A model generated the notes under the pieces. The model saw only the letters and a program-made list of their open reading frames with translations, searched no databases and was not told the origin of the DNA. A stretch of 33,188 nt of DNA from Candidatus Zhuqueibacterota bacterium (GTDB taxonomy: Bacteria > BS750m-G25), in assembly GCA_016783505.1 (NCBI GenBank), contig JADHWK010000023.1:1-33188 (forward strand). Reading direction: 5' to 3'. Both the position numbers and the translations under genes were made by a program. Positions 15,418 to 22,958 of this stretch are shown one piece after another. The stretch's first letter is position 1. Each line of letters opens with the position of its first letter.

Positions 15418-15676
15418 TGCCGTTCCCGTTTAATAAAATGGGGTCCGTTAATATCAGTAAGTATCTTGCCGTCTATAAAAGGCAACTTCTTTACAAATGT
15501 GTCAAGTTTTGATAGAGTTTTCGCATTTATTCTAAAGGGTGAAAAAGTCCCGTTGCCTGTTTTTCGGTGACGCGGCCAGTATCGGCTTTCGGTGCGGACG
15601 CATCTTGGGATAACGGCCTTCGGTATTCGGTAAGACCGGGTTACCAATAATTAATACCGGGCTTCGATACGGGTTT

Positions 15677-15694
15677 TCCCGAAGCTTCGGGACT
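15677..15694. repeat. short palindromic repeat TCCCGAAGCTTCGGGACT
   Basis: perfect 16-bp palindrome, family member. Confidence 0.7.
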
Positions 15695-15797
15695 AAACGA
15701 ATGACGAATTACTTCCACTACAGCCTTTTAAACCCCCTGAAATTTAATCTCGTTGGTTTAAGGCGAAACTTCGCTAGTATTATGAGGGCTTTTCAAT

Positions 15798-16820
15798 ATG
15801 GTAAAGGAAGCGATGTTCTATGAGAAGGTTGACGGCGGTAAGGTCGTCTGCCGCTTGTGCGCCCATTACTGTAAAATCCTACCGGGAAGAATTGGAATCT
15901 GTGGGGTGAGGGAAAACCGGGAAGGGACTCTGTTTACCCTGGTATATCAAAAGGCCATTTCTACCAGTGTAGACCCGGTGGAAAAGAAACCCGTTTTCCA
16001 TCTCTACCCGGGGTCGGGTTCCTTTTCCTACGCCACAGTGGGCTGTAATTTTCACTGTAAGTTCTGCCAGAACAGCAACATCTCCCAGTTCAGCAAACAG
16101 AGGACAGAATATATCCCGGGGCAGGATATTACACCCGAGCAAATAGTGGCCATGGCTCAGGGGTATGAATGCAGGAGTATCGCCCATACCTATACCGAGC
16201 CGATCATCTTCTTCGAATACGCTTATGAGATCGCCCAAAAAGCCCATGATGCCGATATAAAAAATATTTTCGTAACCAACGGCTATTTTACCGAAGAATC
16301 GTTAAAGGCCATCGCCCCCTATCTGGATGCCGCCAACGTGGACTTAAAAAGCTTTGAAGACCGATTTTATCGCCGATTAGTGGGGGCTAAGCTTCAGCCG
16401 GTTTTGGATTCACTGAAAATGATGAAGAAGCTGGGCATCTGGGTAGAGGTGACCACCCTGATCATTCCTACACATAACGATTCCGAAGATAATTTGAAAA
16501 ATATCGCCAGTTTTATCCACGATGATCTGGGGTCGGAGACCCCCTGGCACATTAGCCGGTTCTACCCCCACTATAAACTGATGGATGTGCCCCCGACGCC
16601 GGTTGCCACTTTACGAAAAGCCCGCCAGATCGGTCTTAAGGCCGGCCTGCGATATGTCTACAGCGGTAATGTTCCCGGGGATGAGGGGGAAAGTACCTAC
16701 TGTTACCAATGTGGAAAAGTACTTATTAAACGATGGGGATATCAAATTCTGGATAATAAAATTAAAAATTCAAAATGCTTCTACTGTGGAGCGGCTATTG
16801 ATGGAGTTGGGATGGGGTAG
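15798..16820 (+). CDS. amrS: AmmeMemoRadiSam system radical SAM enzyme
   Basis: N-terminal C.LC.H.C..G.CGVR.N, DPVEKKP.FH, GCNFHCKFCQN, YTEP, PWHISRFYP, C-terminal CxxC pairs. Confidence 0.92.
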   Translation: MVKEAMFYEKVDGGKVVCRLCAHYCKILPGRIGICGVRENREGTLFTLVYQKAISTSVDPVEKKPVFHLYPGSGSFSYATVGCNFHCKFCQNSNISQFSKQRTEYIPGQDITPEQIVAMAQGYECRSIAHTYTEPIIFFEYAYEIAQKAHDADIKNIFVTNGYFTEESLKAIAPYLDAANVDLKSFEDRFYRRLVGAKLQPVLDSLKMMKKLGIWVEVTTLIIPTHNDSEDNLKNIASFIHDDLGSETPWHISRFYPHYKLMDVPPTPVATLRKARQIGLKAGLRYVYSGNVPGDEGESTYCYQCGKVLIKRWGYQILDNKIKNSKCFYCGAAIDGVGMG

Positions 16821-16917
16821 TGCTTTATGCTTAATAATTCCTTTCTTTTCGAAATGTTACATTACTCAAATTACATGTTATAACACGGCGTTTAGGCAGT
16901 ATCATAATATGTTAGTC
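16821..16917 (+). mobile_element. putative attI-like/promoter module, copy 1
   Basis: ~95-bp repeat with an exact 25-bp core TGTTATAACACGGCGTTTAGGCAGT shared with 20846-20937; ends in GTTAGTC at the start of the first cassette. Confidence 0.5.
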
Positions 16918-16960
16918 CTATCAACTTGATTAGTTTCAAACCAAAATAGGAGGAACTACA

Positions 16961-18139
16961 GTGAAGGCAAGGAAGATTAACGAAAGTATCTACTGGATGG
17001 GTGCTATTGACTGGGATAGACGTTTGTTCGATTCTCTCATACCGCTTCCTGATGGGACGAGTTACAATGCCTACCTGGTTCAAGGAAGCGAGAAAACGGT
17101 ACTGTTAGACACCGTTGATCCCACCATGGTGGATGTTCTTCTGTCCCAATTAGCGAGCGTCCCAAAAGTTGATTACATTGTTGCTCACCATGCCGAACAA
17201 GACCATTCTGGGGCCATTCCCCACGTCCTGGAAAGGTACAAAGACGCAAAGGTGCTTATGACCCCCAAGGGGAAAGGGATGCTCATAGATCACTTGTCCA
17301 TTCCAGAGGATCGGGTGATCGCGGTTAAAGATGGGGAGGTTCTGTCGCTTGGCGACAAGACGCTGGAGTTCATTTTCACGCCCTGGGTGCATTGGCCGGA
17401 AACTATGGTCACCTATCTTCAAGAGGAGCGCATCCTGTTCAGTTGTGATTTTTTCGGGTCGCATTTGGCCACTACCGATTTATACGTTACCGATGAGGCT
17501 CGCGTGTATGAAGCCGCCAAGAGGTACTATGCAGAGATTATGATGCCCTTCCGCAAGGTCATCCAAAAGAACTTGGACAAAATCGGTAGTCGTGAAATCG
17601 CTCTGGTAGCGCCAAGCCACGGTCCCATCTACGACCGACCAGCTTTTATCATAAACGCCTACCGAGGCTGGATCTCGGAGGAGCCCCAAAACGTCGTAGT
17701 TCTCCCATACATATCCATGCACGGCAGTACCAAGAAAATGGTGGAATACTTGACCAGTGCGTTGACCGAAAGAGGGATCACAGTTTACCAATTTGACTTG
17801 GTCGTGACTGACATTGGAAAGTTGGCGATTGCTCTGGTGGATGCCGCCACCATTGTAATTGGGACGCCTACGGTTCACCTTGGGCCACATCCTCTTGTTT
17901 TCTATGCCGCACACTTGGCCAATGTTTTGCGCCCTAAACTAAAATTCGCCTCGATTATCGGGTCCTACGGCTGGAGCAGTAAAGCGGTTGAACAGATTGC
18001 CGGGTTGATTCCGAATCTGAAAGTAGAGATATTGAGTCCAGTACTCTGTAAGGGATTTCCCAGAGAGAGCGATTTTGATGCCCTGGACAAACTGGCGGCT
18101 GCCATTGCAGGCAAGCACAAGGAACATAACTTGATCTAG
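16961..18139 (+). CDS. fprA: FprA-type flavodiiron protein (MBL + flavodoxin), cassette-borne
   Basis: GTSYNAYL, HHAEQDHSG, VHWPETM, SCDFFG, APSHG, YISMHGST, GSYGW. Confidence 0.92.
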   Translation: MKARKINESIYWMGAIDWDRRLFDSLIPLPDGTSYNAYLVQGSEKTVLLDTVDPTMVDVLLSQLASVPKVDYIVAHHAEQDHSGAIPHVLERYKDAKVLMTPKGKGMLIDHLSIPEDRVIAVKDGEVLSLGDKTLEFIFTPWVHWPETMVTYLQEERILFSCDFFGSHLATTDLYVTDEARVYEAAKRYYAEIMMPFRKVIQKNLDKIGSREIALVAPSHGPIYDRPAFIINAYRGWISEEPQNVVVLPYISMHGSTKKMVEYLTSALTERGITVYQFDLVVTDIGKLAIALVDAATIVIGTPTVHLGPHPLVFYAAHLANVLRPKLKFASIIGSYGWSSKAVEQIAGLIPNLKVEILSPVLCKGFPRESDFDALDKLAAAIAGKHKEHNLI

Positions 18140-18164
18140 CGACACTTTTTCAAGATGGGAAGCG

Positions 18165-18295
18165 GCCTAACAAGCGGTTGCATCCGACCGCACTTTCGAG
18201 GTGGTTTTTGGAGTCTTTTTAGCATTTGGAAGGTGTCTTTCTGTGTTTCATCCGTCGTATGAGCCGCGCGGAGGCTGAGCTCCATTCCGTTATAC
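18165..18295 (+). mobile_element. integron attC site (131 bp)
   Basis: R'' GCCTAAC, left arm GTTGCATCCGACCGC, right arm GCGGAGGCTGAGC, R' GTTATAC. Confidence 0.8.
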
Positions 18296-18318
18296 CTATA
18301 AAAAATGGAGAAAATATT

Positions 18319-19491
18319 ATGTCTAAAATTAATAATTTATTTTTACTTCTCTTTGTTTCATTTATCATTTTTTCACATTATCTCTATGGACAATCACCAG
18401 AAAATACACCACAAAAAGTATATAGATACTGTTATGTGGTCAATTCTAAAGATTGGTATAAGAATCAGGGAAAATTGTGGAAATTAGAAATATCAAAAAA
18501 TCCACATAATGAAGATGCATGGTACAACTATTTTTTTGCAGCCAGATATGGGTGGGCAAATGTTAAAGGACAAACTAATACCAGAGAAGCGCTTATGGAT
18601 TCAATCTATAATGAAATGGGTAAAGCTATTCCGAATTCCTGGGTATATCATTATATACATTATTATAATTATGCCACTGATTTTTCTCGTCTTGAAAAAG
18701 CTTATCAAATTAATCCAAATAGACCTGATTTATATTGGGAATTTATAAAGGAATATACACTGACAGGACAGAAACACAAGAGCTCTGAGTTTTGCAAAAA
18801 GCTGTATGAGAGTAAGGATATTTCAACTGGCATTTATAATTTGAATTACAATATGTTGAATTCAACAACCAAAAATTCAATTTTATTTACAAATGGAGAC
18901 AATGACACATACCCTGCCTGGGTATTACAGCAAGCAAAAGGGATAAGAAAAGATGTATTAATCATAACAATGCACGGGATATTTTCATATCGAGATTATC
19001 TAAAATCAATTTTAGCTGATAAAGGTATCAATTTAAATATAGAAAAATTATCAAAAACCGACGTTACTTCATATTTTAATGCACTGGTAAAATCATTGAG
19101 AACAAACTATCCTAATATAATGATTCATATAGCCCGGACAGTTTATAAACCTTATTATGAAAGATTTAAGGATAAATTATACCTGACTGGATTTGTATTT
19201 ACGTATAGTGAAAAGCCTTTTAACAGTGATGAAAGTAATAGAAAGATAATTGAAAATGACCTTAGATTAGATTATTTAGATATTGATTGGTATGCTGATT
19301 TACATGTCTCAGAACCATTGGTGAATCAATTAAATCTAATGTATGTTGATCCTTCTCTAAAATTAGCTGAATATTATAATTTGAAAGGAGATATTAAATC
19401 TGCAATAAAATGGAAGAATAAAGCCTTATTCCTTTCAAAAAGAGCAAATGATGAAGATTTAATAAAAAAGATAGAAGAAAAGAATTGGTGA
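18319..19491 (+). CDS. AT-rich secreted hypothetical protein with a DUF2723 C-terminal-like segment, cassette-borne
   Basis: signal peptide; ILFTNGDNDTYPAW.LQ...GIRKDV motif; GGAG SD; the ORF-track start (18226) lies inside the attC. Confidence 0.6.
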   Translation: MSKINNLFLLLFVSFIIFSHYLYGQSPENTPQKVYRYCYVVNSKDWYKNQGKLWKLEISKNPHNEDAWYNYFFAARYGWANVKGQTNTREALMDSIYNEMGKAIPNSWVYHYIHYYNYATDFSRLEKAYQINPNRPDLYWEFIKEYTLTGQKHKSSEFCKKLYESKDISTGIYNLNYNMLNSTTKNSILFTNGDNDTYPAWVLQQAKGIRKDVLIITMHGIFSYRDYLKSILADKGINLNIEKLSKTDVTSYFNALVKSLRTNYPNIMIHIARTVYKPYYERFKDKLYLTGFVFTYSEKPFNSDESNRKIIENDLRLDYLDIDWYADLHVSEPLVNQLNLMYVDPSLKLAEYYNLKGDIKSAIKWKNKALFLSKRANDEDLIKKIEEKNW

Positions 19492-19499
19492 CAAATTTG

Positions 19500-19634
19500 G
19501 CATAACAATTGGCTCAAGCTGACCGCAAGGGCGATGGCGCGAATGGGACGTTTGGTGGTTTCTTTGAAGTTTTGTGCATAATTTAACATATTGATTACAT
19601 TATCCTTGCGGCAGCTTATTCAAAATCGTTAGGC
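19500..19634 (+). mobile_element. integron attC site (135 bp)
   Basis: R'' GCATAAC; AAGCTG-A-CCGCAAGG pairs with CCTTGCGG-CAGCTT leaving one unpaired base; R' GTTAGGC. Confidence 0.88.
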
Positions 19635-19774
19635 GTGCAGGTCGTATTTCAACACCTGAATTTTTTTATTTTTGACATCAACATGTTTTAATCCTTCCTT
19701 GATTTTTCATAAGTTCAACAAGATATTAGTTTCAATTTCCGATCTGTAGTGTATTTTTGTTATTGGAGGAAGTA

Positions 19775-20554
19775 ATGAAAATTCCAATATATCAAGTTGA
19801 TGCTTTCACAGACAAAGTATTTGGCGGTAATCCAGCCGCAGTCTGTCCTTTAGATAATTGGGTAGATGATGAAATTCTTCAAGCCATTGCCGCCGAGAAC
19901 AACTTATCCGAAACAGCTTTCTTCGTTAAACAAGGCAATGATTTTGAGCTAAAATGGTTCACGCCAAAGACAGAGGTTGAATTATGCGGCCATGCTACCC
20001 TCGCTTCAGCCCACATCCTTTATAACCATCTGGATTACAAAGATCATCAAATAAACTTTATTACCAAAAGCGGCGTTTTAAAGGTTACTAAAAAAAATGA
20101 TATTATTTCCATGAATTTCCCTTCAACAAAACCGGTGCCGGTTGAAATTCCAAAAGAACTAACCAATGGTCTTGGATATGAACCTTCTGAAGTACTCAAA
20201 TCAAGGGATTATCTCGCTGTTTTCAAAGATGAAGAAACAATCCTTTCAATCAAACCGGATTTTGAAATTCTAAAGAAACTGGATTGCCTGGGGATAATTG
20301 TCACCGCCAAGGGAAACAACTCTGATTTTGTATCGAGATTCTTTGCACCGGGGGTGGGCATTCCTGAGGACCCGGTAACGGGTTCAGCCCATGTTACTTT
20401 AGTACCTTATTGGTCTGAAAAATTGAACAAAAAATCTTTGTATGCAATTCAGATGTCAAAGCGTAGGGGTGAATTATTTTGTGAAGATTTGGGGGAGCGT
20501 GTATTGATTTCAGGAAAAGCGGTCACATATTGTGAAGGATCAATTGTATTATAG
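19775..20554 (+). CDS. PhzF-family isomerase/epimerase, cassette-borne
   Basis: YQVDAFT...GGNPAAV, NLSETAF, EVELCGHATLA, EDPVTGSAH; GGAGG SD. Confidence 0.93.
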   Translation: MKIPIYQVDAFTDKVFGGNPAAVCPLDNWVDDEILQAIAAENNLSETAFFVKQGNDFELKWFTPKTEVELCGHATLASAHILYNHLDYKDHQINFITKSGVLKVTKKNDIISMNFPSTKPVPVEIPKELTNGLGYEPSEVLKSRDYLAVFKDEETILSIKPDFEILKKLDCLGIIVTAKGNNSDFVSRFFAPGVGIPEDPVTGSAHVTLVPYWSEKLNKKSLYAIQMSKRRGELFCEDLGERVLISGKAVTYCEGSIVL

Positions 20555-20572
20555 ATTGCGTTCTCTTTTGAC

Positions 20573-20653
20573 GGCTAATGAGATCAAACCAGTTTTTTCT
20601 ATTTTGTAAGTACATCGGGCGTTATTAGCGGATGATGCCCGGTCCCGTTAGGC
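20573..20653 (+). mobile_element. degenerate attC (right half recognisable)
   Basis: GCGGATGATGCCCGGTCCC-GTTAGGC right arm; ACGGCTAAT at the left matches the cassette's own left core (rc ACGCCTAAC) at 7/9. Confidence 0.5.
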
Positions 20654-20694
20654 CGTATTATCCATTTTCAGAGAATAGAAAAAGAAGCATAAGG

Positions 20695-20826
20695 ATGACT
20701 GATAACAAATTCAATTTAAAAACTATTTGAGAAGGAATAGCTGGAGCGGCCGCCATCGCTGTCACCTTTGAGACGCCCATGTTTCGGCCCTGGCGTATTA
20801 GGTGGGGTGCTACCGATTCAGGTTGA
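20695..20826 (+). pseudogene. truncated cassette gene head (..RPWRIRWGATD..), copy 1
   Basis: 145-bp ungapped homology with 22681-22825; in-frame TGA at 20728 where the other copy has GGA. Confidence 0.65.
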
Positions 20827-20845
20827 TACCCTGCGAATGGATTAA

Positions 20846-20937
20846 TGCTTTTTCCTTAACTAATTTTTTCCGAATCGCTTGATTACCAAAATGACGTGTT
20901 ATAACACGGCGTTTAGGCAGTCCAATATAAGTTAGGC
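20846..20937 (+). mobile_element. putative attI-like/promoter module, copy 2
   Basis: repeat of 16821-16917; ends in GTTAGGC, whose extension GTTAGGCGGTTT matches the SDR cassette right end AAACCGCTTAAC at 11/12. Confidence 0.55.
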
Positions 20938-20972
20938 GGTTTTGCTTATTTAATTGAATATTGGAGATAGTT

Positions 20973-21731
20973 ATGGATTTTTCTGGTAAATATGCATTAG
21001 TTACTGGAGGTTCCCGGGGAATAGGTAGGGCTTGTGTTGAGGCCTTTGCAAAGCATGGTGCACGTGTCGCTATTAATTATCACCATAATGCAGATGCAGC
21101 ACAAGATACTATTGACAGATTGCCAGGTGGTCCGCATTTGATGATAAAGGCGGATGTATCGGATCCTAATTCAGTGAAAGAGTTGATTGAAAGAGTTACG
21201 AATGATTTTGATGGTTTAGATATCGTTGTGAATAATGCTGGTATATCACAGAAACATCCAATAGATGAGATTGAGTATAATACATGGCAGGAAGCCTGGC
21301 AGCGAGTTATGGCGGTTAATCTATTCGGTCCGGCAAATGTTATGTACTGGGCAGCCCAATACATGATGAAAAGGAGTGGTGGTCGCATAGTCAATGTTTC
21401 GTCACGTGGTGCATTTCGAGGTGAACCTGAACAGCCTGCATATGGTGCTAGTAAGGCCGCTTTGAATTCAATGAGTCAGTCATTGGCTCAAAAGTTAGCC
21501 AAATACAATATTTTCATCGGTGTAGTTGCTCCTGGATTTGTTGAGACCGATCTCTCATCAAAATATTTATCAGGTCCGGAGGGAGATAATATAAGGAATC
21601 AGAGTCCGCTGGGTAGAGTTGCACGACCGGAAGAAGTGGCATATGCAGTTTTATTTCTTGCTTCAGAGGGTTCAGAATATATGACTGGTGCGATCATAGA
21701 TGTAAATGGTGCGAGTTATTTACGTTCTTAA
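20973..21731 (+). CDS. SDR-family oxidoreductase, cassette-borne
   Basis: TGGSRGIG, VVNNAG, NVSS, YGASK, APGFVETD. Confidence 0.95.
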   Translation: MDFSGKYALVTGGSRGIGRACVEAFAKHGARVAINYHHNADAAQDTIDRLPGGPHLMIKADVSDPNSVKELIERVTNDFDGLDIVVNNAGISQKHPIDEIEYNTWQEAWQRVMAVNLFGPANVMYWAAQYMMKRSGGRIVNVSSRGAFRGEPEQPAYGASKAALNSMSQSLAQKLAKYNIFIGVVAPGFVETDLSSKYLSGPEGDNIRNQSPLGRVARPEEVAYAVLFLASEGSEYMTGAIIDVNGASYLRS

Positions 21732-21769
21732 GTGTATCAGTATTTAACTTATAATCAGGTATCTAAACC

Positions 21770-21832
21770 GCTTAACCAGTCGCTTCACCTGATCCCGAAG
21801 GATGGGGACAGGTGAGCTCCGAACCGTTGGAC
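21770..21832 (+). mobile_element. integron attC site (63 bp)
   Basis: R'' GCTTAAC; GCTTCACCTG-A-TCCC pairs with GGGA-CAGGTGAGC; R' GTTGGAC. Confidence 0.88.
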
Positions 21833-21849
21833 GTCAAGAAGAAACGGTC

Positions 21850-22629
21850 ATGAACGAGATACATGAGGCCAATAGAAAGGGCTGGGATGCTGCTGCGTTA
21901 GCAGGGCTTGGTCAGGCGGATCGCACGATAGACTGGCGACGTTGCCACCGCGATGCACGCCTCGTGTTCACTGAGCAGGAGCTAAAATGGCTTGGCAATG
22001 TCAGCGGCAAGAGGGTATGCGTTCTGGGAAGCGGAGACAACCTTGCCGTTTTTGCTCTCGCGGGGCTGGGGGGCGAGGTGACCTCTGTTGACATTTCGCA
22101 GGAGCAACTCAACATTGCCAACAAGCGAGCGTCCCAACTCGGGCTGTCCATCGCCTTCGTCCAAGCGGATGTCATTGATCTGTCCCCACTGGACAGTAAA
22201 TGTTTTGATGTGGTCTACACGGGTGGCCATGTTGCAGTATGGGTGTCTGACCTGCAGAAGTACTACAGTGAGGCAGCTCGCATTCTGAAACCCCGCGGAC
22301 TGTTCGTTGTCAACGAATACCACCCTTTCCGGAGGATATGGAAGGAATCGAAGCATACCCTCGAGGTTGCATTCAGCTATTTTGATCGCGGCCCACATCG
22401 ATGGGACAGATCGGAAGATATCCCGGGCGCAGAACCGGGGTCGTTGCCCGCGTACGAGTTTCATTGGACTGTCAGTGAGTTCTTAGCAGCAGTAGTGGAT
22501 GCAGGATGCGAGTTGTTATTGGTGGATGAATTCGGTGATGAACCAGAAGCATGGGAAATCGCTCCTTTGGCAGGATTGCCTCAATTCTTGTTGATAGTCT
22601 CTAGAAAGAAGGAATGTCCGAAAACCTAA
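21850..22629 (+). CDS. class I SAM-dependent methyltransferase, cassette-borne
   Basis: VCVLGSGD, VTSVDIS, FDVVY, AARILKPRG.F...EYHP; the ORF-track start (21802) lies inside the attC. Confidence 0.9.
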   Translation: MNEIHEANRKGWDAAALAGLGQADRTIDWRRCHRDARLVFTEQELKWLGNVSGKRVCVLGSGDNLAVFALAGLGGEVTSVDISQEQLNIANKRASQLGLSIAFVQADVIDLSPLDSKCFDVVYTGGHVAVWVSDLQKYYSEAARILKPRGLFVVNEYHPFRRIWKESKHTLEVAFSYFDRGPHRWDRSEDIPGAEPGSLPAYEFHWTVSEFLAAVVDAGCELLLVDEFGDEPEAWEIAPLAGLPQFLLIVSRKKECPKT

Positions 22630-22687
22630 TGCAGCCGATTTGTCTCAGGCCATGCGGCCTGACAAACGGCTGATCAGGGTGTTAGGC
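22616..22687 (+). mobile_element. integron attC site with mutated R'' (72 bp)
   Basis: GTCCGAA (GTCCAAC expected from the cassette left core GTTGGAC); ATGCAGCCG-A-TTTG / CAAA-CGGCTG-AT; inner hairpin TCAGGCC-ATGC-GGCCTGA; R' GTTAGGC. Confidence 0.75.
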
Positions 22688-22728
22688 CGTCTTATCTATT
22701 TTCAGAGAATTGAAAAAGAAGCATAAAA

Positions 22729-22825
22729 ATGGCGGATAACAAATTCAATTTAAAAAATATTGGAGAGGGAATAGCTGGGGCGTTTGCCATCGCCGCCGCC
22801 TTTCTAACGCCCATGTTTCGGCCCT
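22729..22825 (+). pseudogene. truncated cassette gene head, copy 2
   Basis: MADNKFNLKNIGEGIAGAFAIAAAFLTPMFRP; homology with 20695 ends at 22825. Confidence 0.65.
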
Positions 22826-22883
22826 CTAAAGCTACCGGTAGATGTCACTTACACGCCAATTTTTTGGTGGCGGGTCATCCGCC

Positions 22884-22958
22884 GGAATTTCTGGGATGTC
22901 AATATAATAGTCCCGTCCCGAAGCCTCGGGATTTGGGATGACATCCTTGATGTGCATG
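22884..22958. repeat. ~70-bp dispersed repeat, copy 1
   Basis: aligns with 29153-29220 (GGAATT.CTG..ATG.C.ATATAATAGT.CCGTCCC...GGGAT.ACATC.TTGA.G.GCATG). Confidence 0.6.

Follow-up and report, generated by a model that had tools for sequence, protein, structure and literature searches.

In the textbook picture, an integron comprises one integrase, one attI site beside the integrase gene intI, and one array of cassettes. How, then, is a cassette array to be read that stands on a contig without any integron integrase gene, and in which a related site precedes the cassettes twice? The question is raised by the window studied here, which is the whole of a 33,188-bp contig (JADHWK010000023.1; C13 below) from the metagenome-assembled genome (MAG; 2.5 Mb, estimated to be 60% complete) of a Candidatus Zhuqueibacterota bacterium. 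Behind the gene amrS it carries two modules of ~100 bp, copy 1 and copy 2 (Table 1), which a first-pass annotation, made from the sequence alone, had taken for possible integrase-free sites of attI type occurring more than once. We consider it probable that they are copies of the attI-type primary recombination site of an uncharacterised integron lineage, scattered in integrase-less form and heading cassettes. The proposal of the annotation gained support from the homology and position of such sites in relatives and from seven clear and two to three degraded copies in the MAG. Below, contigs of the MAG are numbered with C and metagenome loci with L.

The 25-mer TGTTATAACACGGCGTTTAGGCAGT occurred exactly twice in the window, once in each module, with no further occurrence at up to three mismatches, and no match was found in any of 100 shuffles. 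Aligned with each other, the modules were identical in 74 of 98 columns. Permutation of match and mismatch columns reached an identical run of 25 columns in 649 of 100,000 cases, indicating stronger conservation of the core than of the sequence around it in the module. The looser similarity left of the core, which had also been described beforehand, gave a local score of 26 compared to a shuffle mean of 15.9 (standard deviation 2.3), with 1 of 500 shuffles scoring as high. This related flank is real and extends slightly further left than the limits first drawn at 16821 and 20846, since the similarity starts at ~16812 and ~20837, in both copies nine bases ahead of a stop codon. A homology of the left flank of copy 2 to the 3′ end of amrS was also considered; only ~9 nt (ATGGnnTAR) aligned, too little to decide. 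As had been proposed, both modules finish in GTTAG where a cassette begins (16911 and 20931).

Neither module folded better than shuffled sequence when both strands were analysed (z = 0.22, 0.16, −0.82, and 0.75). The DNA left of the crossover in copy 2 is therefore no attC hairpin, as the annotation had held, and the plain attC fold that it had named as speaking against an attI was seen in neither copy. Copy 2 retains a short central hairpin around TTATAA, and the upstream motifs CCTTAAC and GCTTAAT are poor complements of the R box and remained unpaired in the fold, leaving the modules without an R″ partner. Nor do the modules belong, as an attC would, to a cassette on their 5′ side: amrS precedes copy 1, although a decayed cassette does precede copy 2. 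Both copies do carry the R box of attI sites, GTTRRRY, at the boundary of a first cassette. That copy 2 ends at a recombination point had been argued from the complementarity between the start of the cassette encoding a short-chain dehydrogenase/reductase (SDR), GTTAGGCGGTTT, and the R″-like AAACCGCTTAAC at 21765-21776; this complementarity was recovered at 11 of 12 bases. An Rfam search of the window returned no family.

The right part of the module was found on further contigs of the MAG in a fuller, partly palindromic form. We refer to the site family that covers the right-hand ~46 bp of the window modules as S. It consists of an imperfect palindrome (…CGTG TTATAA CACGG…) around TGTTATAACA, whose arms bear GTTTAGGC-like boxes, an AT-rich spacer of 9-11 bp, and the R box GTTRRRY, after the G of which the crossover was placed. 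The attC sites of the window array itself lack TGTTATAACA. When metagenome contigs were scanned with a degenerate version of the core, 19 loci were obtained, 16 of them distinct: eight were palindromic, one was ambiguous, and seven had a degenerate left arm like that of the window (…AAGATGACG TGTTATAACACGG…). The window copies carry the degenerate left arm of the L025 type (…AAAATGACGTG), and their right-hand 46 bp were 87-89% identical to the end of the spacer between intI and the first cassette of L025 (89% for both, across 46 bp in copy 2 and 38 bp in copy 1). When this spacer was compared by BLAST with nine loci and both window copies, homology stopped at one query position, the GTT. Among the S copies, the well-preserved palindromic ones included, only C23 has an R″ complementary to R′ where symmetry would place it. 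Two S copies were present on a single contig in both L019 and L029. Among 40 genomes of the same domain only one 25-nt match was found (E = 8.6e-4), which was taken as chance, and in a scan of genome contigs one match in a Clostridia MAG, covering the core only and without GTTRRRY context, was likewise set aside (~4 expected by our own estimate).

What such a site is can be judged from four of the 16 metagenome loci, at which S accompanied intI. A tblastn search with the L025 protein recovered integrases in L025, L026, and L027 and fragments only in L030, and their identity as integron integrases was given by TIGR02249 (cutoff 265) with 421, 455, and 455 bits for L025, L026, and L027, respectively. 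In all four contigs intI was divergent from S, with the GTT end pointing away from intI and toward the cassettes, and the distance from the intI start codon to the GTT was 309 bp (L025), 379 bp (L026), 384 bp (L027), and ~380 bp (L030). The spacer between intI and S was conserved within each clade, over ~350 bp without internal boundary in L026, L027, and L030. L026 is a complete integron, consisting of intI, S, a cassette starting GTTAGGCAG, and a classical attC that starts ATGCCTAAC and ends GTTATAC. Only the central palindrome of the intI-adjacent sites folded (z −3.1 and −3.4) and their R box was partnerless, whereas in the classical attC sites that close cassettes, used as controls, R″ and R′ paired (z −4.75 at C53 and −2.1 at C30). 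Because S sits between a divergent intI and the cassettes in four contigs with its R box unpaired, it is an attI by position and, as far as its sequence tells, is not built like an attC. The question whether one copy abuts intI, which the annotation had raised, is thus answered negatively for the MAG and positively for the homologous sites of these relatives.

Within the MAG, a search with an nhmmer profile built from 22 sites returned seven clear S copies, at C53, C37, C13 (two), C72, C23, and C30:7578 (E = 5e-19 to 3e-12); C69 and C30:3005 scored more weakly and C59 retains just a remnant of the right arm, which brings the total to about nine. All copies scored much higher in one orientation. 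No intI was found beside any of them, no integron integrase was present on C13, and TIGR02249 gave no match above its cutoff across the genome. The sole trace of intI was an internally deleted remnant at C44:2866-3190, without S beside it, in which an N-terminal stretch of ~70 residues abuts, out of frame, a C-terminal one of ~43 (model positions 1-55 and 262-304). The genes 5′ of the S copies encode V/A-ATPase subunit B, an aldehyde dehydrogenase, a Glu/Gln-tRNA synthetase, a saccharopine dehydrogenase, NfeD, and AmrS; they are co-oriented with S and end 12-212 bp away from it, or 870 bp in the case of NfeD at C72. Since such housekeeping genes cannot be cassettes, S is not the attC of the upstream gene. 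On the GTT side an open reading frame (ORF) follows, and then, at C53, C30, and C37, a classical attC ending GTTAGGC. This recurrence of a distal GTTAGGC is more in line with cassettes having entered an S…GTTAGGC site that was already there than with attG, which consists only of GWT and short motifs without a conserved left site; a conserved ~60-bp S was present at every locus examined. An automated test for cassette closure was positive at three of eight sites (C53, C30:7578, and copy 2 of C13). For copy 1 it returned matches with three mismatches inside ORFs, which were disregarded, and it gave no match for C23 (where the contig ends ~830 bp further on), C37, C72, and C30:3005; at C37 a classical attC with an R″ matching six bases was recognised by eye. 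At C59:20047-20078, S is cut down to its right arm, spacer, and GTTAGCC (~32 bp) directly before an ORF and resembles the remnants of ΔattI-type cassettes.

On this basis, copy 1 heads an integrase-less array of six cassettes directly behind amrS, and copy 2 stands in the place of the attC of a decayed cassette, in the order attC-ORF-attI. Because copy 2 occupies that place, the array in effect consists of two consecutive sub-arrays, each headed by S. An IntI encoded elsewhere, be it on the 40% of the genome missing from the assembly or on DNA acquired by transfer, could insert and remove cassettes by attI × attC recombination, and copy 2 may have arisen by duplication or capture of an attI-bearing segment. 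The cassettes themselves might be expressed by read-through from the upstream gene, as suggested by the consistent co-orientation of S with a housekeeping gene. The promoter or extended −10 element that the first-pass annotation had placed in the core found no support: a sigma-70 scan gave 15 sites compared to 13.4 expected, none of which used TGTTATAAC as its −10 element, and the scan is weak evidence either way, as its consensus may not be that of the host. More tentatively, these loci could together form a distributed integron, in which a single integrase, encoded elsewhere or transferred, would serve many attI-type docking sites behind expressed housekeeping genes, with read-through and no dedicated cassette promoter, and in which the docking site would multiply as attI-bearing cassettes or otherwise. 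We regard this wider scheme as possible rather than probable.

Cassette exchange at S was indicated by a comparison of two metagenome loci. The left flanks of L028 and L035 agree over at least 540 bp (93.7% identity), up to the GTTA of S, and the sequences beyond are unrelated; in L028 the gene mazG (105.9 bits) is present, and the 1.3 kb upstream contain no intI. Judged from this sequence comparison, the pair appears to represent one case of cassette replacement at S with no integrase nearby. The earlier suggestion that the modules seed and re-seed arrays has one comparative case elsewhere and none at the window copies, where such activity is putative. The window was also compared with contigs from four sequencing runs (X2, X5, X6, and X7), including runs of other studies (X5 and X6), which break at the 25-bp repeat. 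One X5 contig (record 13) matched the window up to 22686, within the R′ of the cassette with the SDR and methyltransferase genes; its remaining 241 bases were not placed on the window, and a different cassette may follow that R′ in the X5 population.

Several observations weigh against the reading of S as a scattered attI. The contigs of runs X2, X5, X6, and X7 showed no joint and no skipped cassette at either module, and the junction of amrS, copy 1, and cassette 1 was identical in X2, X5, and X6. No IntI accompanies any S copy of the MAG, in which the only intI is the deleted remnant on C44, and several attC sites of the array look decayed. The assignment as attI by position is drawn from four short metagenome contigs whose assembly is uncheckable; the C-terminus of the L025 integrase is aberrant and the L030 integrase consists of fragments. 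Moreover, the match between the window module and the intI-adjacent sites is confined to its right-hand ~46 bp, the left ~50 bp being private to the window copies. Among the 16 distinct metagenome loci, four (L019, L029, L033, and L028) have no intI in 1.3-4.8 kb of proximal flank, and eight have too little flank to judge. Finally, S is partly palindromic and could serve as a folded strand like attC, a matter that sequence alone cannot decide.

The weak or decayed attC sites revealed by the fold tests could point to a different origin, in which the modules would be plain attC sites, degraded once the integrase had been lost, in a dying cluster of attC sites that has no integron integrase (CALIN), with a left arm mutated beyond pairing. 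The left side of copy 2, TTACCAAAATGACGTG, does resemble a mutated palindromic left arm, CGGCCTAAATGCCGTG, and its short hairpin remains; other sites of the array are degraded (18160-18296, z +1.49; cassette 4 a pseudogene; cassette 6 without attC), and the intI of the genome is itself a remnant. The same type of site, however, lies between intI and the first cassette in four contigs, where the attC of a cassette is not possible, and in the MAG it follows housekeeping genes rather than cassettes. Even well-preserved palindromic copies lack an R″ partner (apart from C23), the degenerate left arm is conserved over seven distinct metagenome loci, and the 25-bp core has stayed identical while the rest of the module diverged, as the permutations indicated. 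Decay of an attC is thus a rather unlikely origin of the modules.

The presence of S at many loci, and twice within single arrays, could also be explained if it were the site of a small ORF-less mobile cassette, perhaps with a promoter, often standing first in arrays and spread by cassette insertion without being an attI. Both ORF-less and ΔattI-type cassettes are described in the cited sections of PMC12901181, and a short left flank, AAGTTAWTRAATGR, with a GTT in it is common to C53 and C37. Against this, the ~350 bp between intI and S are conserved throughout in L026, L027, and L030 and leave no boundary for a separate attI, no common sharp left boundary was found among the scattered copies, and the promoter scan gave no signal; we consider such a cassette unlikely. 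A generic intergenic palindrome, either a repeat of the repetitive extragenic palindromic (REP) or bacterial interspersed mosaic element (BIME) kind or a terminator, whose link to cassettes would be incidental, would account for copies that lie intergenically just 3′ of genes, as REPs do, and for the palindrome with its T run, which is terminator-like on the minus strand (20908-20895). It would not account for the fixed distance and orientation of S relative to intI in all four intI-bearing contigs recovered by the S pattern, for the directional profile scores, or for a GTTRRRY end that coincides exactly with the start of cassettes bounded at their far side by a classical attC and with the point where homology between loci breaks off, and it appears very improbable.

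As compared to known sites, S of the relatives is like attI in lying ahead of the first cassette with a divergent intI on its other side, in its GTTRRRY end with crossover after the G and no R″ partner, and in the repeated box-like motifs upstream (the GTTTAGGC-like arms, and GTATAACAC repeats in the L025 type). The 65-bp attI1 comprises DR1, DR2, an L box, and the R box GTTRRRY, and the attI2 region, counted from the start codon of intI2 up to the crossover, spans ~311 bp (both as given in the cited sections of PMC12901181); the corresponding distance of S, 309-384 bp, is similar to the latter. The likeness is one of position and architecture; no sequence similarity to attI1, attI2, or attI3 was seen, no search aimed at it having been made, and IntI binding and use in double-stranded form are putative. 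Unlike attI, S has a conserved near-palindrome with a 6-bp centre and occurs in about nine copies per genome without adjacent intI, mostly behind housekeeping genes.

A second attI within an array, which the first-pass annotation had called a departure from the standard architecture, is not without precedent: ΔattI-type cassettes have already been published, numbering 96 among 1,685 integrons of class 1 and 14 among 57 of class 2 (PMC12901181, in the sections cited). The examples reported there include a duplicate of the whole 65-bp attI1 and a ΔattI2 of 244 nt, and those that were tested proved to be recombined by IntI1. Copy 2 fits this type: its unit at 20648-20931 runs from the R′ GTTAGGC (20647) to S, so that an attI takes the place of the attC inside an array. 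The published cases, as far as that text describes them, lie in mobile integrons that possess both intI and a primary attI, and the attI remnant is mostly just 14-18 nt long, whereas here ~100 bp remain, an integrase is missing from the primary copy too, and the chromosome holds additional scattered copies.

With at least two attC sites (19500-19634, 20573-20653, and 18165-18295) and no integron integrase nearby, the window array is itself a CALIN. CALINs and single attC sites lacking integron integrases (SALINs) are likewise made of cassettes and attC sites without an integrase, often at several loci per genome and mostly with one or two cassettes (PMC4889954; 10.1101/2022.09.11.507474; both as cited in part). 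They are defined there by attC alone, whereas each locus described here is headed by a conserved site homologous to an intI-proximal one. Some cassette insertions outside the integron platform are explained by attG, with expression if a host promoter is near (10.1101/2022.09.11.507474, in the part cited). The loci described here resemble them in having cassettes in the chromosome outside the platform, and differ in that attG consists of GWT plus short flanking motifs with a minimum of 18 nt, compared to a conserved ~60 bp with a full GTTRRRY in S. Our literature search found no description of one attI-type site in many integrase-less chromosomal copies, each heading cassettes.

Whether the thousands of cassette loci without an integrase (CALINs and SALINs) stem from integron debris or from insertion at loose attG sites is debated. 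The attI of most integrons is unknown and not searchable (Cury et al., 2016, PMC4889954, in the part cited), so that whether such loci begin with an attI can normally not be asked. Here the attI of the lineage is recognisable by homology, and the same site heads about nine integrase-less loci in one genome. A third origin, multiple attI docking sites served in trans, thereby becomes directly testable, and the S variants, the complete IntI genes of L026 and L027, and matching attC sites supply the sequences for such a test. If a distributed integron of this kind were real, many small CALINs and SALINs would be attI-headed mini-integrons rather than debris or attG insertions.

Table 1. Modules, cassettes, and recombination sites of the array behind amrS, in window coordinates.
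Feature	Position	Strand	Remarks
amrS (AmmeMemoRadiSam radical SAM enzyme)	15798..16820	+	Last non-cassette gene; TIGR04337 372.1 bits (cutoff 220)
Module copy 1	16812..16917	+	S, non-palindromic subtype, array head; core 16876-16900; nhmmer E = 3e-12
Copy 1 R box GTTAGTC	16911-16917	+	Crossover G16911/T16912; homology to L025 and L019 stops at GTT
Cassette 1, flavodiiron-like protein	16912..18289	+	ORF 16961-18139; Pfam ODP/Lactamase_B/flavodoxin
Cassette 1 attC	R″ GCCTAAC 18165-18171; R′ GTTATAC 18289-18295	+	Poor fold, z +1.49 (18160-18296)
Cassette 2, 390-aa low-GC ORF	18290..19628	+	ORF 18319-19491; no Pfam or NCBIfam match
Cassette 2 classical attC	R″ GCATAAC 19500-19506; R′ GTTAGGC 19628-19634	+	R″/R′ pair in fold, z −1.74
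Cassette 3, PhzF-like	19629..20647	+	ORF 19775-20554; Pfam
Cassette 3 weak attC	R″ GGCTAAT 20573-20579; R′ GTTAGGC 20647-20653	+	
Cassette 4, decayed, 284 bp	20648..20931	+	In-frame stop in small ORF; copy 2 in place of attC
Module copy 2	20837..20937	+	S inside array (attC-ORF-attI); core 20897-20921; nhmmer E = 3.8e-17
Copy 2 R box GTTAGGC	20931-20937	+	Homology to relatives stops at GTT
Cassette 5, SDR and methyltransferase	20932..22681	+	SDR 20973-21731; methyltransferase 21802-22629; R′ GTTAGGC 22681-22687
Cassette 6, 70-aa ORF	22682..22941	+	ORF 22729-22941

The array follows selA, a TerB/DnaJ gene, selB, and amrS, the neighbours of amrS having been identified with Pfam. A cassette status of amrS itself was rejected, as the spacer upstream (15418-15797) contains no attC and the gene is a TIGR04337 equivalog beside selA and selB. 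The start of cassette 1 was complementary to its own R″ at six of seven bases, and that of cassette 2, GTTATACC, to its R″, GGCATAAC, at seven of eight. The cassette 2 ORF has a GC content of ~0.26-0.34 compared to 0.46 for the genome. Cassette 4 and its paralogue cassette 6 both begin at an R′ GTTAGGC, that of cassette 4 at 20647, and the first 145 bp of cassette 4 (20647-20791) are ~88% identical to the start of cassette 6. In cassette 5, AAACCGCTTAAC and the following CACCTGATC (21765-21800) are complementary to GATCAGGGTG…GTTAGGC (22671-22687), 870 bp downstream, and the methyltransferase gene, of higher GC content, lies between these parts as though inside a split attC. No recognisable attC follows cassette 6, and housekeeping-type genes (AmiA-like and amidohydrolase) come next.

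Further observations concern the metagenome arrays. An Rfam search over seven metagenome loci matched only a group II intron (RF02005, domains D1-D4, 105.8 bits), at L022:9-277 on the minus strand, ~1.2 kb downstream of S within the cassette array. S of the L025 type ends a larger repeated unit at L019:4270-4845, L019:5733-5948, and on the reverse strand of L020 (1109-1280 and 4029-4223). Part A of this unit begins GTTCTTGTCAAG right after the CTAAC…hairpin of a cassette, and part B is homologous to the L025 intI-proximal spacer; the two parts were also found apart, and at some loci a ~700-bp structured insert lies between them. A reading of the module as a very long attC with a far-upstream left arm, composed of parts A and B as in L019, was not adopted, as each part is also found on its own and part A is missing from the intI-adjacent sites. 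Also on the reverse strand of L020, at ~1283-1757 and in the orientation of the cassettes, a C-terminal fragment of a tyrosine recombinase (…IVQELLGHTGVKTTRIYTQV) is followed by ~200 bp of repeated TTATGTGAGTCGCAT motifs ending GTTAGGG, which may be a second, different attI remnant in the same array. In L024, L035, L032, and L036 a leader motif (…ATTAGRCTGCARTTTTTRCWATATA…) is conserved ~120-130 bp left of the S centre; it precedes palindromic S copies without adjacent intI and is unlike the intI-proximal spacer.

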